Shown here: piece by piece, positions 47,224 to 62,175 of the stretch | How the letters are laid out: each line of letters opens with the position of its first letter | Position numbering within the stretch: the first letter of the stretch is position 1 | Sequence record: NC_048170.1 | Reading direction: 5' to 3' (one strand) | DNA: 64,000 nt | DNA from: Escherichia phage vB_EcoM_Goslar | Program-made: the position numbers and the translations under genes | The notes under the pieces: model-generated | The model's input: only the letters and a program-made list of their open reading frames with translations | What the model was told of the DNA's origin: nothing | Database searches by the model: none

Positions 47224-50200
47224 TTATTTGGCGTCGTTAAAATAAATATCAACAGCTCGTTCCGTTGCGTAGAGGAGACCAAGATTCACAGTCCCAACCA
47301 CTTCCGGTGAACCGATGATACGGTTAGCGATACTGGTGCCACTGAAGATAGCATCAAGGGTGTGCCCGTCTTCGGTTTTGTTCACACCATGACCCACGGA
47401 AGAGACAACGGATTTCGCTTGTGCTGCGAAGGTACCTTTATCACCCATCCCCGCACCAAGGTCGTAACGCATGAAAATACGGATGGCGATCTGGTTCTCG
47501 CCTAACGGATTACCGTCTATTCTTACGTTACTGTTGTTGATACGCCCCGTTGTTGCTTCGTTGAGTTTCAGTTCCTTAACGCGTTTAGCTCGTGCTTTAT
47601 CCGCATCGCCGACGAGCGCTGCCATGGTTTCACTCATATCCTCAATCTGAGCGCGGTACAATACATCGATCTGTACAACTTCACCATGAACGTCAGCACG
47701 TGGGTTATACTGACTCATACGCCGTAATGCTTCAACGGCTTCCTGACTCTCATCACTCAGATCGGTCGCAATCGGTTCTTCCAGTGTTGCAAGGATCGTT
47801 CGTGGTTCAACATGATCGCCGATTTTCACGAGACCACGAATGTTGAGATGGGCGTCAACGATGAGTGTACGACTCTTAATCGATGGTGTTACGAGACGAT
47901 CGGCAAGATTGTCGAAGATATACGAACTGTCCTCGTGCGTCTCTGGAATATCCAGAATACCGACAAGAGACAGAACACCTGCGCGCCAAACAACCTGACC
48001 TGGGTTCCACCAATCGCGTTTAAAATAAAGACGATGGAAAACCACCACATCCTGATCCTTAACGCGATCCCCGACTTTATAATCGGTAATGAGATCGTGA
48101 GGATAATACTTACCTGGTCCTTTCCCGATTATCGTGCCGAGTTGGAAAACCTCTTCTCCTAACTCTGGATCGTCGTATTGTATCGTAAGCGCAGTTTTGG
48201 TGACCTTCTTAACAACACCATCGCCTTGGGCAGCTGCTGCGAAGAGTTTACCAACACGATGCGCGATGACTGTCTCGCCACCCGTACGCCATGGTTGTAC
48301 ATCGTAACCTTCAGCAGCAATCATGCGGTTGTGTTGGATTCCGACAAAAACCAGACGTTTTCCATCGTCACGGTCTACAGCCGGAACAGCTAACGCCGAC
48401 GTACTCATTACCGATGAGATACCATCTGTCTTTTCATCGAATGGTCGTGTTTCACCATACACCGACACGATATTAGCATTAGGTGCAAGGTAAGCAGAGA
48501 TACCCACATCCCCACTATCTTTCGTACCCTCTGACACAATACCAACATCAGACTTGTCGTATTCACGATCGCGTGCGCGTCGAAGCGATGTCTTTGAACG
48601 ACCTCCGATACCGGTCATCGTTGCTTCTTCACCTTGCTTGATATCCAGCATTGGGTTGGTTTCATCAATGACGATAGAAGCACTGTCGTCAAGGATTTGG
48701 TTCCAAACGCTCACCGGACTGATTGAGATCTTCTGTCGGTTGCCTTGGCTGCTGTTCTCATTCTGACGAATAGCGCCAACCAGGTCCTTATACACCAATT
48801 CAGCGAACTTATCGTACGTTTTAAAACGTTGGTAGTTCACATCGTTCGTGTTAGGTGCCCAATCATCCAGAAGCAGTTCAACAGCACGCAGTAGCAACAT
48901 GGCGAAATCAGTAGGTTCTCCCATGTTCTGTAATAGCGTACGGCTTACCGGATCAACGAAAAGACGCTCCATGAGTTCAAGTTCGCGTAAATGGCGAACC
49001 TTAAGTCCAGCACCATCGACAACGTTAAAATAGATATCACGATTGTCAAAAGCGCCGCGAGCGTAACCGATGTAGTTACGGTACTCGTTAAACCCACCCA
49101 GCAACAACGTCGTCATGCGATCGTCTTTACTGAAAATCAAACTTTCATCGTCAAAGCTCACCGCGAATTCATCTGCTGCTAACCCCATACGAGAACCACG
49201 AGGTACCGTACGATAGTTTGCTTTAAGATGTTCTAATAACGGGGTAAGTCCGCCCAGATAACTTAGAACAACGCCAACCGGAATACGTACACCCATGAAT
49301 TCAAGATCGGCGGCTTCGATCGGCATCTTAGCCGCATTGATACCGAAGAAATCAGGGAACGTCCCTACAGGTGTTGGTGTTTGTCCTGACTGACAGATAT
49401 AGAGCTGATTGCGTTCATCGATCGCTAGGAACTCACCCGATGTGTTACGTGCGAACGTCAGGAGTCCTTCGGCTAACTGTTCGTTGAACCGATCTTCCCC
49501 AATGAACTCCGGCAATGTTTTTATATCGAGACGTATATCCCAATCAGCAAATTGGATTTGGGTATAGTTGCGTGCAAGCACAGCGAAGTAATACGGGACT
49601 TTGACAGCCGGATCAAAGACGTTACCACGTTTTAACGTTGTTAAGGGTGAGGACTTATCGTAATACATCGCCGTAAGTTGACGTGTTAGCCAACGACCGG
49701 CGTTATTAACGACGCGCTCTGAACGTTTAACAAACACCTTACCGTAGGCGGTACTTAATGCAACTTCGGATGATGATACCTTTCTAATAGGTTTATCAAC
49801 ACGTTGTTTACGCATCCGGTACTTGATGCCGTTAACAACATAAATGCCATCCTTACGAACCTTCGGCAACATCACCGGGAACGTGGTTGGGACACCGCCT
49901 ACAGGGGCCAGTTTAATCGTGATGACTTGATAATCCCCCATCACGTCAACAACATCTTCGACTTTATATCCCGTAACAGGGTAACCTGCTTGCTGTACCG
50001 CAACAACGGCAGCTGCGATGTCCTTTTGCATTACATGCTCAACGTAATGTTTATCCCACACCGCAAGCGTCGATTTACATAGGCTCTTATCGACGATAAC
50101 ATCCGCTTCCGGCATAACCTTTGCGGGAGCTAATTTTGCGGCTTTTGGTTTAACTTCAACATACTCGGCAAGCGTGAGTCCAGAACCGTCGGGCGCTTCG

Positions 50201-51570
50201 ATTTCATGAATAGCGTCGGCATTACGCATCGCTGCTTTATATTGGACGCCGCTTAACTGACCCGCATCCGCCAGATCGCTCGCGCGCACCAACACCGCAT
50301 CCGATAACGACTGAATATATTCACCGTGCGTTTTTGGTAACGTTGCCGCGTCAAAGACATCAACCTTTTCTTCTTCGGTATCGTCGGTAACGACTTCGAA
50401 GAGATCGTCGGTAATGTCCTGATCTTCATCGGGTTGGAAATCTGGTTGTACTTCTACCCCGGGTACTTCACGGACATCTTCGAACGCGCGTTCTACAATG
50501 GCGTTCCACGCATCAGCGTCATCGTCTTCATCCGACCCACCGACCAACTCCGCTTCTAACTCGTCGGGGTCAAGAACAGTGGCCAGATCCTCCCCGTTAG
50601 GAAGCATGACGTCACGATCATCGTACTCCGCATCCGGGCTGTCCGCAAGAATATCTCGCTCTTGACGAAGAACCTGTTCCTCTTCTTGTTTCTGTTCTTC
50701 TTCATTCGCACTCTGCGACCACAGACGTGTTACCGCCATCATCCAACGACGCTGGAAGGTTTCAAGTGTCGTTTTATCGAGTTCTTCCCCTTCCTTTACA
50801 AGTCCGGTACGCCATTCTTCCAGTAGACCAAGATTCAGCGTAAAGAAGTACACACCGTCTGTAAATACAACGTTAAGCTTATCCAGCGTGGCTCTGTCTA
50901 ACGAAGCCATCGTGCTGTTCTCACGATCGACGCCCAGCCAGCGGAAGAAGTCAAAGAACGACAGCTCCTCCGGCGTGGCGAAATTCATGAGGTTGTTACG
51001 GGTCGGTGCCTGTTGCGTGGTACGCATCAACGAAATCTTCGGCAATGTTGACGGTATACGGAACAACAAAAAGTGTTGACGATCGCTTTGCTGTGCGATT
51101 TCGTTGGCTTTCGACCAAATTGTTTTACGCACGTTGAACCATTCATCATACCAACGGGTGAGCGTTGGACGATAGATGTACATGTGGTTAAGATGTGCGT
51201 AGTTAGCAACGATCTGAGCGTTGATGTTTTTCTCCACCGTACTTAGATCGGTAACCAAACGAAAACGACGATGCGATGCACGATAATCCAATTTCGCTCG
51301 TGGAAGTTGGAATCGTTGATCGCGTCGAGGTGCACCCTGTTTGGTTGCGAGATCATCAGCAAACGAAATCCATAGTTGAGCACTTTCTTTACTCAGCATG
51401 TATTCGTTTTCTGGAGGACCTATCAATGAAGGATCCGTTGCGGTGTAATGATAGACAGCATAACGCGGCAGCTGCAATAGCTGCACTAAACGTAATCTCG
51501 GTGACAATAGCTCTTGGTAGCGTCTGACACCAAACTGTCGGTAGTAATCAAGGTATTTAAGTTTTGCCAT
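47224..51570 (-). CDS. virion-type RNA polymerase beta-like subunit (N-terminal extension plus beta core; phiKZ gp180-like by position)
   Basis: 1448-aa ORF. Beta motifs: DGIYVVNGIKYRMRKQ (cf. DNGTFVINGTERVIVSQ), TGIGGRSKTSLRRARD...SEGTKDSGDVGISAYLA (cf. GPGGLTRERAGFEVRD...PEGPNIGLINSLSVYA), GAGMGDKGTF...EDGHTLDAIFSGTSIANR (cf. AGRHGNKGVIS...[20 protein letters not shown]). The first 480 aa or so are non-homologous and include an acidic stretch. Confidence 0.75.
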   Translation of the reverse strand: MAKLKYLDYYRQFGVRRYQELLSPRLRLVQLLQLPRYAVYHYTATDPSLIGPPENEYMLSKESAQLWISFADDLATKQGAPRRDQRFQLPRAKLDYRASHRRFRLVTDLSTVEKNINAQIVANYAHLNHMYIYRPTLTRWYDEWFNVRKTIWSKANEIAQQSDRQHFLLFRIPSTLPKISLMRTTQQAPTRNNLMNFATPEELSFFDFFRWLGVDRENSTMASLDRATLDKLNVVFTDGVYFFTLNLGLLEEWRTGLVKEGEELDKTTLETFQRRWMMAVTRLWSQSANEEEQKQEEEQVLRQERDILADSPDAEYDDRDVMLPNGEDLATVLDPDELEAELVGGSDEDDDADAWNAIVERAFEDVREVPGVEVQPDFQPDEDQDITDDLFEVVTDDTEEEKVDVFDAATLPKTHGEYIQSLSDAVLVRASDLADAGQLSGVQYKAAMRNADAIHEIEAPDGSGLTLAEYVEVKPKAAKLAPAKVMPEADVIVDKSLCKSTLAVWDKHYVEHVMQKDIAAAVVAVQQAGYPVTGYKVEDVVDVMGDYQVITIKLAPVGGVPTTFPVMLPKVRKDGIYVVNGIKYRMRKQRVDKPIRKVSSSEVALSTAYGKVFVKRSERVVNNAGRWLTRQLTAMYYDKSSPLTTLKRGNVFDPAVKVPYYFAVLARNYTQIQFADWDIRLDIKTLPEFIGEDRFNEQLAEGLLTFARNTSGEFLAIDERNQLYICQSGQTPTPVGTFPDFFGINAAKMPIEAADLEFMGVRIPVGVVLSYLGGLTPLLEHLKANYRTVPRGSRMGLAADEFAVSFDDESLIFSKDDRMTTLLLGGFNEYRNYIGYARGAFDNRDIYFNVVDGAGLKVRHLRELELMERLFVDPVSRTLLQNMGEPTDFAMLLLRAVELLLDDWAPNTNDVNYQRFKTYDKFAELVYKDLVGAIRQNENSSQGNRQKISISPVSVWNQILDDSASIVIDETNPMLDIKQGEEATMTGIGGRSKTSLRRARDREYDKSDVGIVSEGTKDSGDVGISAYLAPNANIVSVYGETRPFDEKTDGISSVMSTSALAVPAVDRDDGKRLVFVGIQHNRMIAAEGYDVQPWRTGGETVIAHRVGKLFAAAAQGDGVVKKVTKTALTIQYDDPELGEEVFQLGTIIGKGPGKYYPHDLITDYKVGDRVKDQDVVVFHRLYFKRDWWNPGQVVWRAGVLSLVGILDIPETHEDSSYIFDNLADRLVTPSIKSRTLIVDAHLNIRGLVKIGDHVEPRTILATLEEPIATDLSDESQEAVEALRRMSQYNPRADVHGEVVQIDVLYRAQIEDMSETMAALVGDADKARAKRVKELKLNEATTGRINNSNVRIDGNPLGENQIAIRIFMRYDLGAGMGDKGTFAAQAKSVVSSVGHGVNKTEDGHTLDAIFSGTSIANRIIGSPEVVGTVNLGLLYATERAVDIYFNDAK

Positions 51571-51573
51571 GGG

Positions 51574-51754
51574 TTAGGCTCCACGAGGTCCCGTTAAGTT
51601 GCGTAATAGGAACGCAACCGTATCGTAACCAATATCAATGTTGAATTTATTTTTACCACTTACCCAGAAAGCTCGCTTCTTGTGCGAGTTGGTAATTTCG
51701 TCAATAGCTTCCATGGAATAAAGAACGTTAACCGAGACCGTATCACCGTCGAAC
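51574..51754 (-). CDS. virion-type RNAP beta' N-terminal subunit, proposed exon 2
   Basis: In-frame segment (G)FDGDTVSVNVLYSMEAIDEITNSHKK...GPRGA* aligns with E. coli [20 protein letters not shown]; a stop lies 3 codons upstream, so the exon must begin here; it ends 3 nt before the beta gene ATG. Confidence 0.5.
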
Positions 51755-53807
51755 CTTGTCTTCGCCTCAGGTCGCTACGCTGAGACCGCCTGCATGGATA
51801 CGTACATCACAGGCTGCTTGCACTTTCATGCAAGAGGAGACTATATCAAACCGTCAGCTTCACTTTCTCGATCATATCGAGAATGCGGCGCTGAAGTATT
51901 CTTCAGCAGCACCTGTTACGGTAACCTACACTTCGAAGACGCTTGTCCTCTACAGGGTGGTAAATCCCTTAGTCGTTGAACCTGCGTTGTTTCACATTCT
52001 TACAACCAAGAATGCCGTATTGCTACGCAATAACCAGGCTGCTGATTGCCCATTGTCTCGCACCTTAGCACCGCTTACGCGGCTTTTCTTTCAGCCTAAG
52101 CCTCTTACGGAGGTAGTGCATCTCAACTGTTGTTTCTGCCTTTCGGCACCTCATGGGTCGTTGAGCTTTAGGGGTTCCCAGCAATTCGTAGGTTTTTCAA
52201 GCACTCCCTTTCAGGAATACCGGACCTTATAGAAAAGCTATTTATTCAAGTATCTGAAATCCCACTTATCCTTACGTCTATTATCGCACTTGATGTCAGG
52301 ATGTCTAACACGGTGTTGAATCGTAGTCGCTGGTAATTGACTCACATTCACAGCCGATTTCGCGCCAAGAACAATTGTTTTTGTGTTGTCCGGACGAGTA
52401 ACTTCTACCGCTCGATGATGTTTACGTAACACATCACGCCAATACTCACGCCGTTCCGGTTCCGCGTATTCGAGCATATAACCGTTGGTATCGACCAGAC
52501 CGTAACTCTCGTTTAAACGAGAGGTGGCGGCTGGTCTACTAATACCAATCGCTTTAGCCGCGTCAACCACGGTTTTATACGGGGTCTCATTACCGTCTCT
52601 ATCTACAACCACAATAAAATCTGGACGCGAATCGAGCAGCTGCTGTCTTCGTTCAAGGGCTTGTTGATGAAGCACCTTATTAACATGTTCGAACCCGTAA
52701 CCTTCTGGACCGTGCCACCCTGGATTGTTATTCGCTCGATAAAGTATCGTCGCAGATTTCACTCCCGTCTGACGTGACGCCTCGTTCGCACTATGGACAA
52801 CCGTGGTAGTGCCATCAGGGTGATATATCCGTATCTGGTTCATTATACCAGAACCAACGAAATTACCATCAGCTGATTTAATGTCCGGCCAGGGTTGTGG
52901 ATCATCTTTGAATTTAACCACCCAACGGTTGTTAAACAATTTGACTTTCCGAGCATGTTTACCTAATGTCGTGTCTGTAACACCGGCTACAGCAGAGGCT
53001 TGCGCGATACTAGGATATTCCGTGACCACATCTTCTTCAGTATCCCAAAGGAGAACCGGTTTGTTATCATCACGTAGTCCGGTCTCAACCGCATGTAGAA
53101 TATTTCTAAGGCGGGTTGCCCATTCTAGATTGTCTAACGCGTAATTCCACTTATCGCCATCAAGATGGTTAACGTCCATCCTATCGACATCAGCCGGATA
53201 ATCTTTCCACGCTAAGAGCAGACAGCGATGAAGCGATCTTCTCTGGGATTTAAATCGGCAATCATGCTGCATACTAACGAAAACATAGCTATCGTCAACA
53301 CACCAGTGAGGACACTGACGGCCAGTAATACGGTTGATGATTCTACCTTTCCGGTTGGCCAAATAACGAGTGTGTCCGGGAATGACACGATAACCTGGGT
53401 ACTTAGCGATTTCGTAAGCAGGCTCGAACCGATAGGATAAATTATCAACATCCCAGTTAGATTCGTCACCATCAACAAACATCGCTTTGACGTATTTCTG
53501 TGTTTCAATATCAACCAGGATGTTTTTGTGTGCGATACAAATCAATGCTGGGATATTGAATTCGCGACCGGCTATGATAACCGTGTCGCCATTTCTCGGT
53601 ACCTCGACGTGGGTATCGCGATACCGTAAGTTTCCATAGCCGTCTATTTCAATCCAGCTTAAAAACGGAATGGGTATAAACTCTTTTTCAGATACTCGCC
53701 ATTTAAACATTTCAATACCTATTAATTACCACTTTCATATTAATAGGTTTAAAAGTTAAATTTGCCAGAAAACTGGCATTTTGTTAGCCTTTCCTTGATC
53801 ACCGCCA
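51755..53807 (-). mobile_element. group I intron (about 2.05 kb) in the vRNAP beta' gene, HNH ORF in the P1 loop
   Basis: Minus-strand elements: exon end CCGGACU (plus 53808..53814) pairs with IGS GGUCCGG (52220..52226) with U-G at the splice site; P AAUUGCUGGGAA (52175..52186); Q AAUCAGCAGCC (52037..52047); R GUUCAACGACUAAG (51968..51981); S UUGAUAUAGUCUCC (51836..51849). Intron ends in G at 51755. 5' splice site could instead be at 53798. Confidence 0.55.
52238..53710 (-). CDS. HNH homing endonuclease (intron-encoded)
   Basis: 490-aa ORF with HNH motif DRMDVNHLDGDKWNYALDNLEWATRLRNILH, similar to the HNH in the other RNAP intron; lies between the beta' exon 1 and the intron core. Confidence 0.8.
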   Translation of the reverse strand: MFKWRVSEKEFIPIPFLSWIEIDGYGNLRYRDTHVEVPRNGDTVIIAGREFNIPALICIAHKNILVDIETQKYVKAMFVDGDESNWDVDNLSYRFEPAYEIAKYPGYRVIPGHTRYLANRKGRIINRITGRQCPHWCVDDSYVFVSMQHDCRFKSQRRSLHRCLLLAWKDYPADVDRMDVNHLDGDKWNYALDNLEWATRLRNILHAVETGLRDDNKPVLLWDTEEDVVTEYPSIAQASAVAGVTDTTLGKHARKVKLFNNRWVVKFKDDPQPWPDIKSADGNFVGSGIMNQIRIYHPDGTTTVVHSANEASRQTGVKSATILYRANNNPGWHGPEGYGFEHVNKVLHQQALERRQQLLDSRPDFIVVVDRDGNETPYKTVVDAAKAIGISRPAATSRLNESYGLVDTNGYMLEYAEPERREYWRDVLRKHHRAVEVTRPDNTKTIVLGAKSAVNVSQLPATTIQHRVRHPDIKCDNRRKDKWDFRYLNK

Positions 53808-55264
53808 AGTCCGGCGAGGTATGGCGCAGGGACAATAGTAGTTTCTACGAACGAGGCATTAGGTAACCAGTCGGGGTATTCCCACGCAATAAATCGCTCA
53901 TCCGTTATTGGTTCCCAGTTACTATCAAGTTCAGTTTTCGGTTTTGCTGCAACGGTCGTACGCGCGTAACAGGTTAACGGAATGACGGATTGCATACCCG
54001 ATACCGGATAACGTGTTACCATTGCAGCCAGGTTATTCCAGTATTTATATCCTGCGATATACACTAATTCGGTATACGTGATAGGGTGAACATCTGCACC
54101 AGGTTTGTTAAGCATCTCCGGAGGTAATTCACTCATACCACGGAATAACCGAAACGAATCATTGTTCACATAGACAAGACAAAGATATCGTCCATTAACC
54201 ATGATAGGTTCGTTACGCACACCCGGATCGCTTAAGGTGTTCAGTAAGCGTTCTATTCCGTCCCAGGTTGTAAAGTCATCGATGGTGTCTGGATCAAGCG
54301 TGACGCGTTCACGTTCCATCGTTTCGGTATCAATAAGTTCAACTTCTGTAACATCACGGACAAATATTTCCTGCAAAATCCCCGTACGTAATGCATGTTG
54401 CGTTACAGGGAGAGCAGCTTTACTCATCTGGTATAACCCTAACTGAACCGCGGTACAGGAAGGCTGGTTAGGCGACCCTAGTACCTCCGTTGTGGGGTTA
54501 ATTGCTGAAATAACGTTACGGGTTGAGTTCCAAACGCGACGTGAACCAAACTTACCTTGGAAGATCCCTTTCTTACCTTGGAACATATCCAACAACAAAG
54601 CGTAGATATCGTTAAATGTTCTCTGTAAGCTCCAGCGCTGGCCGTCGTAAACGGGATCAGAATAATCTTTTAATCCATCGGGGACGGTGTTAGAAATTGC
54701 AAGGAAACGACGATACAACTCTGTAATCTCTTGCTCGCTTTCATACCCGCCTTCTTTTACTTCTATTTCACGTAAGCCTGCAGGCAATACCAGTAAGTGA
54801 CGGGTCATCGCTTTGAACATGTTCTCTTCGACAACTTTAATTCGTAGCTCTCGTTGAGCTGAGCCCGTTGAAACGAACTTGATATCCGCGACGTGTTGTG
54901 CAAAGAACCCGTATCCTGTTTGTCCTGTTAACGCATCAGACGCAACGAAGTCGCGTTGTTCAGGATCCCAACGAGCGTACGCCTTCCCCGACATGATATC
55001 ACCATAGAGGTGTTTTAGTCGAATGAGGCGGTCGTAAATGACAGGGTGCAGGATTTCAACTTTACATTCAATCACCGCAAATCGACGGTCTCGATCTTCA
55101 CTACCCGCACTACCAAAGATGGTGTAAGAATAGAAACCATCATCGTGGAAATTACCGGTGCTTGGGTCACGAATGCTCATGCTCGTGATCTTGGGGAGAA
55201 AACGTAACTGCTGTTTATCGAGGTGTAAAATGCTAATGTTAAACGGCTCTCTGACTTTAGCCAT
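53808..55264 (-). CDS. virion-type RNAP beta' N-terminal subunit, exon 1 (phiKZ gp178-like by position); start trimmed
   Basis: Beta' motifs RFAVIECKVEILHPVIY (cf. RMGHIELAAPVAHIWF) and FQGKKGIFQGKFGSRRVWNSTRNVISAINP (cf. [27 protein letters not shown]). ORF track gives 53756..55306; ATG at 55264 has an AGAGGAG RBS; 3' end set at the P1-predicted splice site. Confidence 0.65.
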
Positions 55265-55509
55265 GGAGACACTCCTCTTTACCACCACCGGCTGCGGCGG
55301 TATCATCTGAACACACGAGAGACGTAATGGGTGATGGCGTCACCCATCGCTTCCTTGCTTGAGGCGAGGAAGTTATTAGGTTACGTACCTGCGTGATAAA
55401 ATCAAGCAGGCGATGTGTGAAGTTACGCTTCAACATTATCAATGCCGAAGGTAAACTTCGTGCATCACGTTCCAACGTAACATGGGAACGTATCGAACTG
55501 GAGGTATAC

Positions 55510-58500
55510 ATGGTAGATAAAACCCGTGTTGAGGGTGATGATAATTGGGATAACTGGGATGAAGACTTCTCCCTGGATCTCGATTTTAACGAACCCAAAG
55601 ACGATCGTAAACCGATAACACGCTTTGCGATAGGAGCGGTTAAAGGTGCTGCTGAGGATCTTACTTCCTACGAAAGAATGAAGGAGATCGCCAGAAACGC
55701 ATTGCCTAAGGGCTACAGCGACGGTATGGATCTTATCGATTCCGCCGTCGGATCCACGAAGGAACTATACAATGAAGCCGTTCGTGACGTTCTTCCTAAG
55801 GTCCAAAGCTCAAAACGGTTAGCAGCACAACTGACCAAGAAATACCGTGCGAGCATGCCCGATTTCTCGAAGAAAATTCTTGAGCAATGGGAGCGAGAAG
55901 CCAAGGAAGAAGACGAACGTAAACAAGCTGAAGAAGCCCTTCGTCAACGCATGGCGAGCGCGGGGGACGATGAGATCGCCCGCAAGGTTGCCGAGGCATT
56001 AGGCGAATCAGCAAACCAAAGCGCGGATCAGTTTGCTGAACAGCAAGCGAAAGAAAGTATCCGTGACGATATCGCTGACAAACGGTACGCTGTAACCAAC
56101 AAACAAATGAGTGCGATGCAAGAAGGCGTCGCCAAGATGGTTGGTTTCAACAATGAATTCGCTGCACGCTACATGCGTAAAAGCCTGGAACTGAAATATC
56201 GTTCCTTAGCGATTCAACGTGCAAGTTTCGATCAGCATAAAAAGTTAGCCGAAGTCTATATCGGTCTATTACAAAACATCCAGAAGAATACGGCTTTACC
56301 TGATGCAGCTAAAGCGAAGATGTCGGAAGAATTCCGTCGTAGTGCATACCAACGTTTCTTTGGTAATGCGTTAGATGCGATGGGTTCTTTCGAGAACCGT
56401 TTCTTTGCCGATGTTAAGAAGAACCTCGCCACCAACGCATTAGGTGCTTTAAAAGGCGTCGTGTCTGGCGCAAACGATGCGTTATACGGTTTAAACGAAG
56501 CACGTGACTCGATGTCCATGATGGACGGGATGGGGTCAGAAGGCGATATTAAGGAAATGCAAGGAAGGATGTTGGGTCAGTTCATTGGCTCAACTGTCGC
56601 GCCGTGGATGGCTAATAAAGGCAGGATGGCGTTACGCGATTTAGCAAAACGTCACCCCAATGCTAAATTCGCAGGTGCGTTAAAAGCCGTGGATCAAGGT
56701 GGTGAGGCTGCCGCTTACACGACGCGTAATCTCGGTAAACTGCTCCAGGAAGATATTCGTAAGAACGAATTCAATCTTAGCGATCCATTTTACAAGCAAT
56801 TGTTACGCGGCGCAGGGCGTTGGGCGTTCAACATGGACAGCGGACGTAACTTCCGTGTGATGAACGACACCGCTGAAACACTGGCAGAGCAAACATCTTT
56901 CGACGGTTTAACCTACCGCAGCATCAACGAGGTTATTCCGGGCTTTCTTGCACGCATTCTGAAAAGCAGTGAGGGTATCCGCACCGGAAACAGCGATCCT
57001 GACTACGAGGTCTATGACGGCATCAGCGGGCAATTCGTGGCTCAGCGCACGCGCGAACAAAGCGTCAACGACACGCTGTTTAACAAACGTTCGTTTGGTT
57101 ATTACGCAAGCCGTTTCAATGAGGTTATCTCGGTCATCGATCCCGATAAACAATTATCGGAAAAAGCCAGAAAGGCGCTGGCCAAGCAGTTGGCACGAGA
57201 TAGCGACGCAAACATTGCATTCGACCCAGCTCGTTTTACGGATGAAAGCAACTTCGATCGTAGTATCGACCGTGACGCTATTAAGGAACTTTCCACATAC
57301 TTTCGAGACCGTTACGGTATTCGTGATGATGTCAACGATAAGGGCGAACGTCATCAGGTCATTGGAAACCGCGGGCAATATTACACGGAACGTAACCGAG
57401 CTGACCTTCGCTACGGAAATCTGAAATCGTTACAACCGGATATTCAGCGTAACCTTAACCTACTGAAACGTACTGGTGACGTCCAATATCTGGAACGTAT
57501 CGGTATCGTAACGAGAAATAGCGACGGAAGCTACTCAGTTAATCACGATCGGTATTTCTCTGAAATCGATCGATACATCGACCGACCGGAGTACGCTGAC
57601 CGCGGCGATGTTAATACGCGATTAACCGCTCAGGAAACAAGAGCGCTGGCGTTGGGTTATCGTGACGCAAAACCATCAACTGGTGACGTCCAAAATGCGG
57701 GTCTGCCGAACATCGATCGTAAGGCTGCTGGAACAGTAACCGTTGATGAAAACATCGGCTACGATAAATGGTGGAACGACGCTGGCGTTATCACTACATC
57801 GCTTGAAGAACAGAATCGAGCATGGCAAGAACTCTATCTCGAAGCGTTATCTGAAGCATCCGAACAACGTGTCGAAATGCTTGCGTTGCTGAAAGCCATT
57901 TCTGAGAAAGACTGGTCTAATAACGTTTCGCTGGATGGTGAAGACGTACCTGAAGGTGCAGCGCCCATTTCATTTATCGATCGCGCCAAACAAAAACTCG
58001 GCGGACGCAACCTCTTTAAAGGTGGCCGTAATCTCCTCTGGAAAGGAATTAAAAATACCGCACGATTGGGTGTTAAAGGCGCACGTTGGGGTGCAGAACG
58101 TACATTAGGTAGTTTGGTAAATTCCGGCCGACGTATTATCAATTTCAACCGTTTTGTGTTCGGCGCATTATCCAAGGTCGATCAGGTTCCGTTTGACATT
58201 TACGTTAAAGGGGAATCCCAACCACGCATACTGGCTGCCAAACTTCGTCAGGGGTTATACTTCGACGAGGCGACAGGAAAAGCCGTAAAACGGATGAAGG
58301 ATATCAAAGGCCCACTCGTTGATGCGGATGGAAACGTCGTAATCAGCAACGAGGATATCGAGAAAGGGCTGGTCACTCGCGCTGGTCGTGCCTTTGAGAA
58401 TTCAGGACTTAAGGCGTGGGCGCATGAAGGTCTTAATGGAATAACGACGGTATTAAGTCTGCCACGGATGTTAAAACGCGGTGCGGTTGAGATCTACAAA

Positions 58501-61500
58501 CAGCTTGACAGAACACCCGACGTTTACGTCAAGGGAGAATCAACGCCTCGTCTATTATCCATGGTGTTAGCAGCGGGTGGGTATTTCCGTCGCTCTGATG
58601 GGCAAGTCATCAAAAATCTTGAAGACATCGATGGTGATGTTGTTGATGCACAAGGTAACGTCGTACTTACGCTTGCCGACATGCAGAAAGGACTTGTCGA
58701 TAAATACGGTAAAGCGATTCGTCGCTTAAAAGAAAAGCTCATCAACTTCGGTGTGAAAGCTTTCACGTTACCGTTAACCTTACTACGCAAGACAAAGGAC
58801 ATCCTTAAAGCCCTTCCAGGTAAAACCGTTAACGGTCTACGACGGATGGGATTAAATTTCCAATCACCTGACGCATTACTGGTGGGAACAACGTCGAGCA
58901 TGGTAGATCGGCTCGATGCGATTTACCAGCTTCTTGACCAGCGTATGCCGGGTGGTGATAAGGATTACCGCGATTGGGATGGCGATGGTGTTCGAGAAGG
59001 ATCGTTGGAAGACCTGAAACGTAAACGTGCAGCCAAGGAAAACGGTGAGGATGACGCAGGCAAAGATTCCAATAAAGGGGAAGAAAAGGAGAAGAAACGA
59101 GGATTACTCGGAAGCCTTTTCGATATGCTCGGCGATACCGCATTAGGTAAACGCCTCATGGCGAGTCCGCTTGGAAAAATTCTAGGTGGTCTTGGGGCGG
59201 TGTTAAGCGGCGGTGCATCGTTAACCGGGTTGTTGGGCAAAGGTCTCATTAGAGGAACCGGTGCACTGGTCAAGGGAGGACTAAGTGCGGCAGGATGGTT
59301 AGGACGTGGTGCGTTAATGGCGGGCGGGGCCGCATTGAACGCCGTTGGTGGGTTATCGGGATTAGGTGCATTCCTCATCTCACCTGTTGGGCTTGCTATC
59401 GCTGGCGGCGCATTGGCTGCTTATGCTGGATGGAAGATCTATCAGCATTTCGCCGAGAAGCCTGACCCGATGCAGAAGCTCCGTCTTATCGCATACGGTG
59501 TAAAAGGTGACGATAAAGACTTCAATAAGAAGCTGCTTGCGACAGAAACATACCTCACCGACCATGTGGTTATGACCGGGGATACCATCGGATTCGATCC
59601 GAAAGCCGATTCTGAAAAGATTCTCGAAATCTGGGAATTGTCCCTGGAAGATTCCGACCGAATGAACGAATGGAAACGTTGGTATCTACATCGTTTTATT
59701 CCTGTTTTCGCTCGTGCGTACAAACTCTGGAAAGAGCATATGCCGGACGAGAAGAAATACATGGAAATGGATAAATATCCAAACGGTGAGAACAAAGTGA
59801 AATGGTCGGAAGCGTTTATCTGGCCTTCCGATAGTCCTGATGGTCCGTATTACGTCGAAGCTAACCCGTTGGGTTCTTCTGGTGCGACGCGTTATATTGC
59901 TGGTCAAGACGTCAAAACCTTGATGCTGAAACAACTCGAAGCCATCAAGAAAGAGTACCAGAATCAGATTAAGCAATACTCTCATGATGAGGCTATTGCT
60001 GATTGGTCACGGATGTCTGACACACAACGTAAATCCGTTGCGCCTAACGCATTACGCGGTCAGAAAGCGTCGTTACGTTTTAACGATAAACGTTACAACA
60101 GTGCTGGCGCTAAAGGACGACAGAAACTGGATGCAACCGCGGTTATTGAAAGCGTAGACCGCCGCGGCAGGAAATGGGTTGCCGGTGGATACATCGATGA
60201 ACTCACCAGTCTCCGTGTTCGCGCGTACGGTATCAAGGTTCCGTTGTTAAGCCAGATAAAAGTGCTGATGGAACTTGAAGACGCTGTAGAACCTGGCGTT
60301 GTCGCTGAAGGTAAAGGTGTTAAATACGGTGGCGATCTTGTCGCGCTCTACAAGAAATTCGCGACGAAGTTCGGAAGAGACGTTAACAGCAAGCATGATC
60401 AGGATATCTGGTTTGCTTGGATGAATAACCGTTTCCTGCCCGTCTTTTTAACCTATTACCAACAAGTTAGCGAAATGGGCGGTCAAGGACTTCTGTCCGA
60501 CGTGGTACAGAACCTGAAAGACAGCCAGCGTTGGGAAATCGGTGAAGCACTTGTCGCAACGCAATACCGTGATGAGAAAGGTGCATTACAGCCTGTATGG
60601 TCGTGGAACAGTTGTGGTTTCTCCGGTACTGAAGCTAACACCACCAGCAGTTCAACAAAGAGCCAACTCGATCTGTTAAAAGAATATGCGGATAAAGAGA
60701 AGGTTCGTGAGAAGAACGCGGAAGCATCGCAAGAGGATACCGATAAATTATCGAAGATCCAAGAGCTGATGATGAAGCAGGCTGGGTACGAGAAGAAAGA
60801 CGGTGTCTGGCAGAAGAAATCTCGCATTACTGGTGGGATGAGTAACTCCGAAGCGAATTACAACCCCAATGGGAATAAGGTCGGTGCAAGCAGCTTTACT
60901 GCTTCGGCTACTTCCAATGCGGGATTGGGATCAACCGGCGATCTTACTGGATTGCCTAACATGGGCTTACAGAAACCGGCAACGGGACCGGGTCCTGAAG
61001 CTGGACGTCGTGCGCTTGTTAAATCCGCTGTAAAACGCGGTATTACCGATCCAATGGAAATGGCGATGTTCCTTGCGAACATCGAACATGAATCGGGGAA
61101 CTACACTCACGTACGTGAGGGGAACTATAAGACACCTGAGCGTCTTAAACAGGTCTTCCCTTACAAATTCCGTGATGTGCAGGATGCCGCACAGACGATC
61201 AGCATGGGGCCGGAAGCGGTATTCGAACGTGTGTATGGTAATCGTAAAGACCTAGGAAACACACAGAAAGGAGACGGGGCGAAGTATTTAGGACGTGGAT
61301 TCATTCAGGTTACCGGTAAAGCTAACTACGCTCGTCTGTCTAAGACCTTGAATAAGGATCTTGTCAGCGATCCGACATACCTGGAAACGCCGGAAGGTGC
61401 AGCGGAAGGTAGTGTTGCATGGTGGCTCAACCGAGGTAACGTATTACGCGATCCCGCAAAACGGGGTGACGTGCGCCAAGTTCGTTATCTGGTTAATGGT

Positions 61501-62175
61501 GGCTATAACGGATTACGTGATGTTGAACAACGTTCTGCATATTGGATTCAGGCGGCTAAGAATGGCACCCTGAAGAAAATGATGGACGAGTTATCAGGGT
61601 CAACATCAGACGATCAAGCTGAAGGACCGACCACTGCCGAACAGGTGAAGAACGAAGCAGCACAAGAGGCAAACGGAACACCAGCTGTAAGCAACGATCC
61701 GCAAGCCCCAGTATCTTCTACTACCCCTGAAGCTAAACCGTCTGCAGCTGCCGGGACGGCCCCAGCACCTGGAGAAGCATCACCAACGCCTGGAAGTTTC
61801 GAAACAGCAAAAGCCGCGGCAGGACAACCGACATCAACTCCAGCACCTAGCGATTTGCCGTCAAACCCGGGCGCAAATCGAGGGATATCGGTTCCGAATA
61901 CGCCTGCACAGGTTGCACAGTCTGCGACACAAACGTCGGCTGCAAGTGAGAACTTCTACGGTAGCGCAGGTGAAATTCTCCGACAGCAGCTGACCACGCA
62001 GCAGAACATCGAGAAGAACACCGGTAGAACGAATGAACTTATTTCGGAATTAATCCAAGCCGTTAAGGGTTCTTCTATCGGTAAGGGTTCTGCAGGTCCT
62101 TCTCAACAACAGACGATGTCGCTACCTAATCGTCCGCAAGGAATCTCTCCAACACGGACAAGGTACGCACAGTAG
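55510..62175 (+). CDS. giant virion-associated peptidoglycan hydrolase with C-terminal GH19 domain (phiKZ gp181-like); start trimmed
   Basis: ORF track 55393..62175 (2260 aa); ATG at 55510 follows CUGGAGGUAUAC. C-terminal GH19 signatures FLANIEHESGNY, YLGRGFIQVTGKANY, VAWWLNRG (about 61000..61570); Gly/Ala-rich hydrophobic segment (about 59160..59450). Confidence 0.8.
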   Translation: MVDKTRVEGDDNWDNWDEDFSLDLDFNEPKDDRKPITRFAIGAVKGAAEDLTSYERMKEIARNALPKGYSDGMDLIDSAVGSTKELYNEAVRDVLPKVQSSKRLAAQLTKKYRASMPDFSKKILEQWEREAKEEDERKQAEEALRQRMASAGDDEIARKVAEALGESANQSADQFAEQQAKESIRDDIADKRYAVTNKQMSAMQEGVAKMVGFNNEFAARYMRKSLELKYRSLAIQRASFDQHKKLAEVYIGLLQNIQKNTALPDAAKAKMSEEFRRSAYQRFFGNALDAMGSFENRFFADVKKNLATNALGALKGVVSGANDALYGLNEARDSMSMMDGMGSEGDIKEMQGRMLGQFIGSTVAPWMANKGRMALRDLAKRHPNAKFAGALKAVDQGGEAAAYTTRNLGKLLQEDIRKNEFNLSDPFYKQLLRGAGRWAFNMDSGRNFRVMNDTAETLAEQTSFDGLTYRSINEVIPGFLARILKSSEGIRTGNSDPDYEVYDGISGQFVAQRTREQSVNDTLFNKRSFGYYASRFNEVISVIDPDKQLSEKARKALAKQLARDSDANIAFDPARFTDESNFDRSIDRDAIKELSTYFRDRYGIRDDVNDKGERHQVIGNRGQYYTERNRADLRYGNLKSLQPDIQRNLNLLKRTGDVQYLERIGIVTRNSDGSYSVNHDRYFSEIDRYIDRPEYADRGDVNTRLTAQETRALALGYRDAKPSTGDVQNAGLPNIDRKAAGTVTVDENIGYDKWWNDAGVITTSLEEQNRAWQELYLEALSEASEQRVEMLALLKAISEKDWSNNVSLDGEDVPEGAAPISFIDRAKQKLGGRNLFKGGRNLLWKGIKNTARLGVKGARWGAERTLGSLVNSGRRIINFNRFVFGALSKVDQVPFDIYVKGESQPRILAAKLRQGLYFDEATGKAVKRMKDIKGPLVDADGNVVISNEDIEKGLVTRAGRAFENSGLKAWAHEGLNGITTVLSLPRMLKRGAVEIYKQLDRTPDVYVKGESTPRLLSMVLAAGGYFRRSDGQVIKNLEDIDGDVVDAQGNVVLTLADMQKGLVDKYGKAIRRLKEKLINFGVKAFTLPLTLLRKTKDILKALPGKTVNGLRRMGLNFQSPDALLVGTTSSMVDRLDAIYQLLDQRMPGGDKDYRDWDGDGVREGSLEDLKRKRAAKENGEDDAGKDSNKGEEKEKKRGLLGSLFDMLGDTALGKRLMASPLGKILGGLGAVLSGGASLTGLLGKGLIRGTGALVKGGLSAAGWLGRGALMAGGAALNAVGGLSGLGAFLISPVGLAIAGGALAAYAGWKIYQHFAEKPDPMQKLRLIAYGVKGDDKDFNKKLLATETYLTDHVVMTGDTIGFDPKADSEKILEIWELSLEDSDRMNEWKRWYLHRFIPVFARAYKLWKEHMPDEKKYMEMDKYPNGENKVKWSEAFIWPSDSPDGPYYVEANPLGSSGATRYIAGQDVKTLMLKQLEAIKKEYQNQIKQYSHDEAIADWSRMSDTQRKSVAPNALRGQKASLRFNDKRYNSAGAKGRQKLDATAVIESVDRRGRKWVAGGYIDELTSLRVRAYGIKVPLLSQIKVLMELEDAVEPGVVAEGKGVKYGGDLVALYKKFATKFGRDVNSKHDQDIWFAWMNNRFLPVFLTYYQQVSEMGGQGLLSDVVQNLKDSQRWEIGEALVATQYRDEKGALQPVWSWNSCGFSGTEANTTSSSTKSQLDLLKEYADKEKVREKNAEASQEDTDKLSKIQELMMKQAGYEKKDGVWQKKSRITGGMSNSEANYNPNGNKVGASSFTASATSNAGLGSTGDLTGLPNMGLQKPATGPGPEAGRRALVKSAVKRGITDPMEMAMFLANIEHESGNYTHVREGNYKTPERLKQVFPYKFRDVQDAAQTISMGPEAVFERVYGNRKDLGNTQKGDGAKYLGRGFIQVTGKANYARLSKTLNKDLVSDPTYLETPEGAAEGSVAWWLNRGNVLRDPAKRGDVRQVRYLVNGGYNGLRDVEQRSAYWIQAAKNGTLKKMMDELSGSTSDDQAEGPTTAEQVKNEAAQEANGTPAVSNDPQAPVSSTTPEAKPSAAAGTAPAPGEASPTPGSFETAKAAAGQPTSTPAPSDLPSNPGANRGISVPNTPAQVAQSATQTSAASENFYGSAGEILRQQLTTQQNIEKNTGRTNELISELIQAVKGSSIGKGSAGPSQQQTMSLPNRPQGISPTRTRYAQ

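Follow-up and report, generated by a model that had tools for sequence, protein, structure and literature searches.

Introns in the RNA polymerase genes of jumbo phages

The closest described relative of the element that concerns us is the intron in gene 180 of phage phiKZ, which carries gp179 and is one of the phiKZ introns (gp56, gp72 and gp179) predicted by Mesyanzhinov et al. 2002, as cited in PMC10914365 and PMC11512511. A comparable interruption is found in a 64,000-nucleotide (nt) stretch of Escherichia phage vB_EcoM_Goslar (NC_048170.1), the whole of which we call the window. Here, on the minus strand, the homologue of phiKZ gp180, a putative virion RNA polymerase (vRNAP) gene for a beta'-N fragment, is interrupted by a group I intron with a homing-endonuclease gene (HEG), and the initial annotation of this DNA had both the gene and the intron right. 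Where is the intron's 5' splice site? Two candidate U residues lie 10 nt apart on the minus strand, U53808 (site A, in GGA CU) and U53798 (site B, in GGU GAU). The initial annotation located both, and noted that pairing with the guide favored the first and the active site of the enzyme the second. Comparison with related genomes leads us to the reading, held at a probability of roughly 0.9, that splicing would occur at site B, after U53798 and G51754, with the canonical DFDGD motif restored.

In phiKZ, the annotated gp180 ends ...SILAPLGAD* at GGGGCGGAU^UAAUUG (a caret marks a junction throughout), followed by gp179 and then the intron core. The intron reads GCGGAU^UAAUUG...AACAUAACG^UUCGACGGG, and its 3' junction, ...AACAUAACG^UUCGACGGGGACACU, encodes FDGDTVSF.... 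The core (positions 104-481) is 90.8% identical to the 481-nt intron of phages fMGyn-Pae01 and OMKO1, which has no open reading frame (ORF); OMKO1 (H5, H51) has the same ORF-less intron as fMGyn-Pae01, with 100% identity. The GenBank coding sequences (CDSs) of the gp180 homologues of phiKZ (L019 1-1440) and fMGyn-Pae01 (L002 397-1866) stop at ...LGAD* inside the intron, so that the annotated proteins are without the FDGD-bearing second exon and hence without the complete catalytic motif. The phiKZ Gp180 protein has been described with an essential DFDGD motif (PMC10612078). Since in the phiKZ genome DFDGD exists only across the intron, that description counts for splicing at the same boundary.

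The window intron and that of phiKZ gene 180 interrupt the same host gene between the D and FDGD codons, carry the HEG in the loop of an extended P1, and have P2 directly next to the guide (AAGUCC in phiKZ). Their endonucleases are homologous, and both lineages have ORF-less derivatives (fMGyn-Pae01 and OMKO1 in the one; L006, L015 and L016, sister loci described below, in the other). They differ in that the host proteins are ~39% identical in the compared region, the cores have diverged, with extra peripheral hairpins of the P5/P6/P9 type in the window, and the endonuclease has 357 amino acids (aa) in phiKZ and 490 in the window. The window P1 is one exon-side pair shorter, because the exon ends GGUGAU and not GCGGAU, and phiKZ has no upstream decoy complementarity of the kind considered below. 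Judged by sequence, the window intron is an ordinary relative, a member of the known phiKZ gene-180/gp179 kind.

Introns outside this group offer further comparisons. In the Azoarcus tRNA-Ile intron, a 3-bp exon-side P1, CAU/GUG, with a U.G wobble defines the 5' splice site; three exon pairs ending in U.G suffice, so that GAU/GUC is within known practice. The Azoarcus intron is otherwise unlike that of the window, being small, of IC3 type, located in a tRNA anticodon loop and free of any ORF, whereas the window intron is large, phage-type and endonuclease-bearing, with a long-range P1. The td, nrdB and sunY introns of T4 and the SPO1-type introns are closer in setting: they are self-splicing, as the window intron would be, they occupy active-site codons of essential conserved enzyme genes, and intron-plus and intron-minus alleles occur among related phages. 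Their ORFs lie in other peripheral loops (P6, P8, P9) and not in P1, and most of their endonucleases are GIY-YIG or nicking HNH proteins of other families.

A further jumbo-phage example is PhiPA3 gp210, a mobile intron in the vRNAP beta subunit gene gp211/209 (Birkholz et al. 2024; PMC11620839). Its HNH endonuclease has demonstrated activity, and the intron acts in competition between jumbo phages (PMC11620839), its biology being homing plus interference between co-infecting jumbo phages. Like the window intron, it combines a group I intron with an HNH endonuclease beside conserved catalytic aspartates of a chimallivirus virion RNA polymerase gene. Unlike it, gp210 lies at another site, in the beta-like subunit gene (the homologue of phiKZ gp178; here the neighbouring gene, 51570..47224), and the activity shown for PhiPA3 is, for the window endonuclease, predicted from sequence.

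The junction of the two exons

The interrupted gene has the following parts.

53798..55306, minus strand: exon 1 of the beta'-N-like vRNAP gene (phiKZ gp180 homologue), from the ORF list, tblastn and alignment
51754..53797, minus strand: group I intron, 2044 nt, starting CAAGG and ending CAAGG, from comparison with siblings and RF00028
51817..52245, minus strand: catalytic core of the intron (P3-P9), from the Rfam RF00028 match
51574..51753, minus strand: exon 2, FDGDTVSVNVLYSMEAIDEITNSHKKRAFWVSGKNKFNIDIGYDTVAFLLRNLTGPRGA then a stop codon, collinear with the C-termini of intron-less homologues

The tail of exon 1, ...APYLAGLGGD, has the minus-strand codons ...CCA UAC CUC GCC GGA CU(53808) U GGC GGU GAU(53798)^CAAGGAAAGG..., with the GAU codon at 53800..53798. 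The frame (ORF 55306..53756) runs 14 codons past the splice site to a TAA stop at 53758..53756, ending ...TTIVPAPYLAGLGGD-QGKANKMPVFWQI*. At the other end, ...GACAAGG^UUCGACGGUGAUACGGUCUCGGUU begins a 59-codon frame, FDGDTVSVNVLYS...PRGA*, that ends at 51574. Our proposal is that a mobile group I intron interrupts the beta'-N gene between the first Asp and the Phe codons of DFDGD. Splicing after U53798 and G51754 would join GAU to UUC and yield ...YLAGLGGDFDGDTVSV..., with its three-aspartate magnesium site. The predicted ligated junction is GGCGGTGATTTCGACGGTGAT (exon ends GGCGGUGAU+UUCGACGG), the intron would start CAAGGAAAGG, and the junction-spanning peptide would be ...YLAGLGGDFDGDTVSVNVLYSMEAIDEITNSHK. 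Site A would give CGCCGGACTGTTCGACGG or CGCCGGACTTTCGACGG (exon ends CGCCGGACU+(G)UUCGACGG), with an intron starting UGGCGGUGAUCAAGG. Translation returned the products that the initial annotation had reported: ...YLAGLGGD-FDGDTVSV, with the full Asp triad, for site B with 3' G51754, and ...YLAGL-FDGD, without the first Asp, for site A with 3' G51755. The D-x-D-G-D magnesium-binding motif is present in the site-B product only (LGGDFDGDTVSV).

The primary evidence for the junction comes from intron-less alleles. Scans of IMG/VR and metagenome assemblies with exon 1 found eight sister loci, making nine genomes with the window; their exon 1 sequences are 85-96% identical to that of the window in nucleotides and 97-99.8% in protein. 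Two of the eight, L005 (IMG/VR) and L018 (an ENA assembly), whose exon 1 proteins are 99.8% and 98.8% identical to the window's, are without exactly the 2044 nt, and the protein is collinear over the junction. They read CTCGCCGGACTTGGTGGGGAC^TTTGATGG.GATACGGTCTCGGTT, that is LAGLGGD^FDGDTVSV, with the codons ...CTC GCC GGA CTT GGT GGG GAC^TTT GAT GG. GAT ACG GTC.... The L005-type intron-less sequence is GGTGGGGAC^TTTGATGGTGAT, and an engineered counterpart would be GGCGGTGAT^TTCGACGGTGAT. The three codons between sites A and B vary among the nine genomes as GGC/GGT/GGA, GGT/GGG and GAT/GAC, with synonymous changes only, which marks them as exon sequence and would be unexpected of intron sequence. 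All intron-bearing alleles have GAU and the intron-less alleles GAC, which fits a need for U at the 5' splice site, where it would form the wobble pair.

More distant proteins place the junction at the same codons. In tblastn, a 182-aa query that fused the end of exon 1 to exon 2 at site B hit 284 GenBank phage records, 241 of them over at least 80% of its length. They come mostly from jumbo phages (of Pseudomonas, Erwinia, Salmonella, Vibrio, Serratia and others), carry the annotation RNA polymerase beta subunit or hypothetical protein, and show ~39-42% identity to RNA polymerase beta subunit genes, the phiKZ gp180 family included. Alignment with intron-less jumbo-phage homologues had been set beforehand as a test, and Erwinia pEa_SNUABM_37, Salmonella SA002 and Pseudomonas PA7 align without a gap in the LGGD[FY]DGDT region with the site-B product only (window, YLAGLGGDFDGDTVSV; pEa_SNUABM_37 and SA002, RLGLLGGDYDGDTMGA; PA7, ILAPLGADFDGDTVSF). 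Splicing at site A would remove the conserved G-G/A-D and with it the first catalytic aspartate. D[FY]DGD stands at the junction position in every homologue examined, and the spliced protein matches the solved beta' chain of the AR9 non-virion RNA polymerase (7S00_d; phmmer, E=5e-4) with LSGDYDGD aligned with LGGDFDGD. In multisubunit RNA polymerases all three aspartates of NADFDGD coordinate catalytic Mg2+.

Could this enzyme have a non-canonical metal site, as the initial annotation had suggested as one way out? Splicing after U53808, with G51755 as the terminal G, would give ...YLAGLFDGD... with a two-aspartate site, and this product is in frame if the neighbouring G serves in that way. The intron-less siblings keep GGD, the GGD codons are under coding constraint, and the first Asp is kept in all homologues, which refutes a non-canonical site; splicing at site A as the normal path seems very improbable to us, the greater length of its helix, described below, notwithstanding. 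We also considered shifting both splice sites one nucleotide in either direction, and rejected this since D-F-D is then no longer encoded.

The interruption is a group I intron. RF00028 matches 52245..51817 on the minus strand over its full model (1-253), scoring 67.7 bits (gathering score 50; E=1.2e-15), and is the sole Rfam family at threshold within the window; the intron copy of L006 scores 64.9 bits. The Rfam alignment forces P1 onto local sequence and is uninformative for a P1 that spans an ORF. The 3' end, ...GACAAGG(51754)^UUCGAC, has G51754 as the terminal omega-G, kept in 9/9 intron copies. We infer that the RNA would splice itself. Is it possible that the gene is not spliced, with a truncated beta'-N fragment ending ...GGDQGKANKMPVFWQI and FDGD lost or made separately? 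The ORF does stop 14 codons into the intron, GenBank annotates phiKZ gp180 and fMGyn-Pae01 as truncated, and one phiKZ study saw no splicing (PMC10914365). We find this the hardest possibility to credit: exon 2 is in frame and conserved, has no separate start codon and lines up collinearly with the C-terminal end of the intron-less proteins, and the intron core is well above the Rfam threshold and ~96% conserved. To our knowledge there is no precedent for a DFDGD loop split between two chains.

Pairing at the 5' splice site

The elements that bear on the choice of site are these.

53785..53794, minus strand: 5' strand of the P1 extension, GGAAAGGCUA (intron positions 4-13), from RNAduplex
52231..52240, minus strand: 3' strand of the P1 extension, UAGCUUUUCU, from RNAduplex; includes the HEG stop codon
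52222..52226, minus strand: internal guide sequence GGUCC; GUCC is invariant in 9/9 intron copies, including phiKZ
52200..52221, minus strand: P2 hairpin, GGUAUUCCU-GAAA-GGGAGUGCU, directly 3' of the guide
53807..53815, minus strand: site-A decoy, GCCGGACU^U, coding L-A-G-L, complementary to AGGUCCGGU (52227..52219)

When every U of the exon tail was compared with every G in the 20 nt that precede P2, site A proved to have the longest match to the guide region, GCCGGACUU / AGGUCCGGU. The helix of GCCGGACU^U (53815..53807) with AGGUCCGGU (52227..52219) has eight exon-side pairs and one intron-side pair, with U53808 in a U.G wobble, and is longer than first reported. Site B has only GAU^C / GGUC, 3+1 bp, with the guide; the disagreement between P1 pairing and the active site is thus a true property of the sequence. 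How surprising is the site-A helix? When the final 60 bases of the exon were shuffled 20,000 times, a helix that ended in U.G with the 20-nt guide region reached 8 bp or more in 3.9% of cases and 7 bp or more in 10.8%. The helix is noteworthy, though not compelling alone and not beyond coincidence.

The initial annotation could find no guide for site B. This was wrong: GGUCC serves site B, in a register shifted by one nucleotide, with the pairs U53798.G52225, A53799-U52224, G53800-C52223 and C53797-G52226. Its other suggestion, an unusual P1, came closer to the truth, since P1 is indeed short and its register shifted, though it is not exotic. In our proposal, exon G-A-U and intron C(+1) would pair with the guide G-G-U-C (52226..52223) and so set the 5' splice site, with the U.G wobble at the cleavage site, a 10-bp extension across the endonuclease ORF would join the two strands, and P2 would come next. 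Four nucleotides separate the end of the extension (53794..53785 with 52240..52231) from the GGUCC element, and five from its GUCC core; it is because the extension brings the strands together that a 3+1-bp core P1 can form across 1.5 kb. An extension is found at the same place, in unrelated sequence, in every lineage: L013 has GCCC-UUUUAG/CUAAA-GGGU, phiKZ has another helix, and in the ORF-less copies it is an 11-bp hairpin, CCUUGAAAAA...UUUUUCAAGG. Such covariation supports an extended P1 whose loop was colonised by the HEG. Inspection by eye near the 5' end and between the HEG stop codon and P3 revealed no other guide, that is, no full GUCACC-type complement of GGUGAU.

Is the short P1 conserved? 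At this codon boundary, GAU^N / N'GUC is kept by five distinct sister introns, that of phiKZ gene 180/gp179 among them. P1 is GAU^C / GGUC in the window, L013, L014 and L017, GGAU^AA / UUGUCC in L006 and L015, GAU^AA / UUGUC in L016, and GGAU^U / AGUCC in phiKZ and fMGyn-Pae01. We counted pairs in an alignment of seven distinct alleles from the two lineages, anchored on the splice site and on GUCC. The core pairs of site B, G-C, A-U and U.G, are invariant in all seven, and the pair of +1 with the guide varies as A-U (3), C-G (2) and U-A (2). In P2, five of the nine pairs are changed on both sides between the window and phiKZ families, and 96.8% of cells are paired; the window-family copies share ...GUCC-GGUAUUCC(U/C)GAAAGGGAGUGCU..., the 22 nt after GUCC forming the 9-bp P2 with its GAAA loop. 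Together, P1 at site B and P2 are 91.4% paired, against at most 50.5% for registers slid by 1-3 columns, and their covariation score of 0.470 compares with 0.158 for column shuffles, none of which (0/500) reached it. The site-A helix is 61.9% paired in the same alignment, which is the shuffle level (253/500).

The two halves of the site-A helix have separate histories in the sister genomes. L005 and L018, both intron-less, carry the exon half (CCGGACU, coding A-G-L) without change. The guide half (AAGGUCCGG) occurs in L013, where the exon has CCGGUUU, and the ORF-less copies carry UUGUCCGG with exons CAGGGGCU or CCGGUUU. As each half exists alone, the two meet only in the window, L014 and L017; the complementarity is absent from L006, L015, L013 and L016, that is, from four of the seven intron-bearing sibling genomes, despite the same guide or intron core. 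Site A has a further cost, as two of its pairs need G52221 and G52220, the first two pairs of the covarying P2, and it would move the wobble G away from P2 by one position relative to all other family members. Most likely the site-A complementarity is a coincidence limited to one sub-lineage, a fortuitous match of Leu-Ala-Gly-Leu coding sequence with the conserved GUCC-GG of guide and P2, and the position would be at most a potential cryptic site.

Might both sites be used? Group I introns can use cryptic 5' splice sites in vitro through alternative P1 pairings, and splicing in T4 is sensitive to exon-intron mispairing. One could imagine that site B gives the active enzyme and that site A is a cryptic or competing site, or a mispairing that slows folding. 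Either helix can form with the same guide, and in context the energies are just ~2.6 kcal/mol apart: a mini-construct in which 30 nt of exon were combined with the guide, P2 and the P1 extension (closed by GAAA) has the site-B structure as its minimum-energy fold at -32.3 kcal/mol, and the enforced site-A fold, weaker because site A unzips P2, has -29.7. Set against this, the site-A helix is without conservation or covariation and its halves occur independently, and a ribosome on exon 1, passing both sites on its way to the stop at 53756, would presumably melt the pairings. We judge the use of both sites unlikely. Because the site-A product with the normal 3' splice site is frameshifted, any use of site A would be noise rather than function, and would leave less functional mRNA in the sub-lineage of the window, L014 and L017. 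It is similarly doubtful that the upstream 9-bp guide complement acts in vivo as an alternative P1 in that sub-lineage. If it did, it would be a cryptic site, with a frameshifted or GGD-deleted product, or a mispairing melted by ribosomes, and the yield of active vRNAP would be coupled to translation or growth state.

Several points weigh against our preferred reading of splicing at site B. The splicing and its junction are derived from comparison of DNA alone. A long-read transcriptome of phiKZ gave no evidence of splicing of phiKZ introns, gp179 included, under its conditions (PMC10914365), and direct RNA evidence for the gene-180/gp179 intron family is thin. As isolated duplexes, site A (-13.8 kcal/mol) far exceeds site B (-1.2 kcal/mol) in stability; as site A also has a proper U.G wobble, some minor cryptic use of it is conceivable in the window, L014 and L017. 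Alleles with GGUGAU have just 3 bp of exon-side P1 at site B, and P10 is weak, ~2 bp by eye. The alignment used for pair counts is small (seven rows) and hand-anchored in a way that favors the tested structure; given so few data, and an alignment made with the hypothesis in mind, we take the pair counts as supporting evidence and not as proof.

The endonuclease, the allelic forms and the locus

The HEG and the downstream neighbour are listed here.

52238..53710, minus strand: intron-encoded HNH homing endonuclease ORF, 490 aa, from Pfam and phiKZ gp179 homology
47224..51570, minus strand: downstream neighbour gene, 1448 aa, from the ORF list

The endonuclease ORF occupies the terminal loop of the extended P1, and its UAG stop lies inside the 3' strand of the P1 extension. 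Residues 176-203 match PF13392 HNH_3 (E=3e-8, 33.6 bits against a cutoff of 24.8), a NUMOD1 match is below threshold (21.2 against 22.8 bits), and in BLASTP phiKZ gp179 is 31% identical over 228 aa (E=2e-29). L013, L014 and L017 have the ORF intact, and the endonuclease is probably active in homing. The stretch from the 5' splice site to the HEG start codon (53710) contains two hairpins on the minus strand, at 53762-53777 (UGCCAG-UUUU-CUGGCA) and 53718-53747 (CCUAUUAAU...AUUAAUAGG), the latter ending 7 nt before the AUG. L013 has different sequences, and by eye hairpins are possible there at both places (UCUGUAA-GAAU-UUACAGA; AAACCUCU...AGGGGUUU). These hairpins may control endonuclease translation.

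The nine genomes present all three states of the homing cycle at one site. L014 and L017 have the window version of the HEG-bearing intron and L013 a variant with a different 5' segment; L006, L015 and L016 have an ORF-less intron of 462-546 nt at the same insertion point, with a core ~96% identical to that of the window (for L006, ~96% from GUCC to the 3' end); and L005 and L018 are intron-less. The coexistence of these alleles is circumstantial evidence that the endonuclease may act on the intron-less allele. The intron-less alleles differ silently from the window at the insertion point (GGG GAC^TTT GAT versus GGT GAT^TTC GAC), and such differences could be co-conversion tracts or endonuclease-resistant target variants. 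The intron's peripheral hairpins (51817-52160 in the window) are gained or lost as clean modules among the L013-L017 copies. L013, L014 and L015 carry an inserted hairpin of 33-36 nt (UGGCGAUGUCUGAUUAAAUCAGACAUUACCUCC), a 33-nt stem-loop following CCUGGUUGU is deleted in L013, and the stem before GAUAUAGUCU has a 28-nt deletion in L013 and L017 and a 49-nt deletion in L016. The combinations, which are independent of the presence of the HEG, suggest recombination between intron copies.

The pentamer CAAGG stands at both ends of the intron (53793-53797 and 51754-51758, minus strand). We considered whether it makes the junction ambiguous and rejected the idea, as the alternative excisions are not equivalent and the ORF-less siblings start AAG[UC]CC; the sharing is probably a coincidence. 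In phage LUZ24, CAAGG repeats border an unexplained 34-nt spliced fragment (PMC10914365).

Wider searches for the intron found little. A scan of IMG/VR with a degenerate guide-P2-P3 pattern returned only a sibling contig and five chance matches in coding DNA, a scan of bacterial and archaeal genomes returned no relative, and distant blastn with the intron core gave nothing beyond short matches of the core to unrelated phage introns. Over 69 nt (query 64-132, the P3-P5 region), the core has 80-84% identity to unannotated DNA of the ~240-kb jumbo phages Proteus phage 7 and Salmonella phages SaP7 and SPFM1 (H41, H42, H48), which suggests that these phages may harbor unannotated group I introns.

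The gene order at the locus matches that of phiKZ, PA7 and fMGyn-Pae01, with a large divergent gene upstream and a beta-like gene downstream; by position, the 1448-aa ORF at 47224..51570 is the counterpart of phiKZ gp178, the annotated RNA polymerase beta subunit gene. Exon 1 likely starts at ATG 55264, chosen by eye and preceded by AAAGAGGAG. Against Pfam, exon 1 matches no family at E<=0.01, the RNA_pol_Rpb1 models included, and so its beta' membership rests on the motif and on homology to phage subunits. Divergence from Pfam models is usual for jumbo-phage RNA polymerase subunits. From the best matches, which are to the gp180 locus, and from the synteny, we infer that the product would be a subunit of the virion rather than of the non-virion enzyme. 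Megablast of the locus against GenBank phages gave no match. An Rfam match to the ribosomal S15 leader, at 56241-56346 on the plus strand within the 2260-aa ORF 55393..62175, stays below threshold (25.6 bits, gathering score 39.5, E=0.02) and can almost certainly be put down to chance.

What does the interruption mean for these phages and their annotation? Its main value is for annotation: the proper form of the beta'-N subunit would be a joined CDS, 55264 (or 55306)..53798 + 51753..51574 on the minus strand, in which alone the complete DFDGD catalytic loop is present, and joined CDSs would likewise be proper for the phiKZ, fMGyn-Pae01 and OMKO1 equivalents. For group I introns generally, the longest guide complement is an unsafe predictor of the 5' splice site; here intron-less alleles and covariation give the right answer. 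Near-identical genomes with three allele types offer a natural snapshot of the homing cycle, and the window intron lies in a gene class already shown to matter in competition between jumbo phages (PMC11620839).

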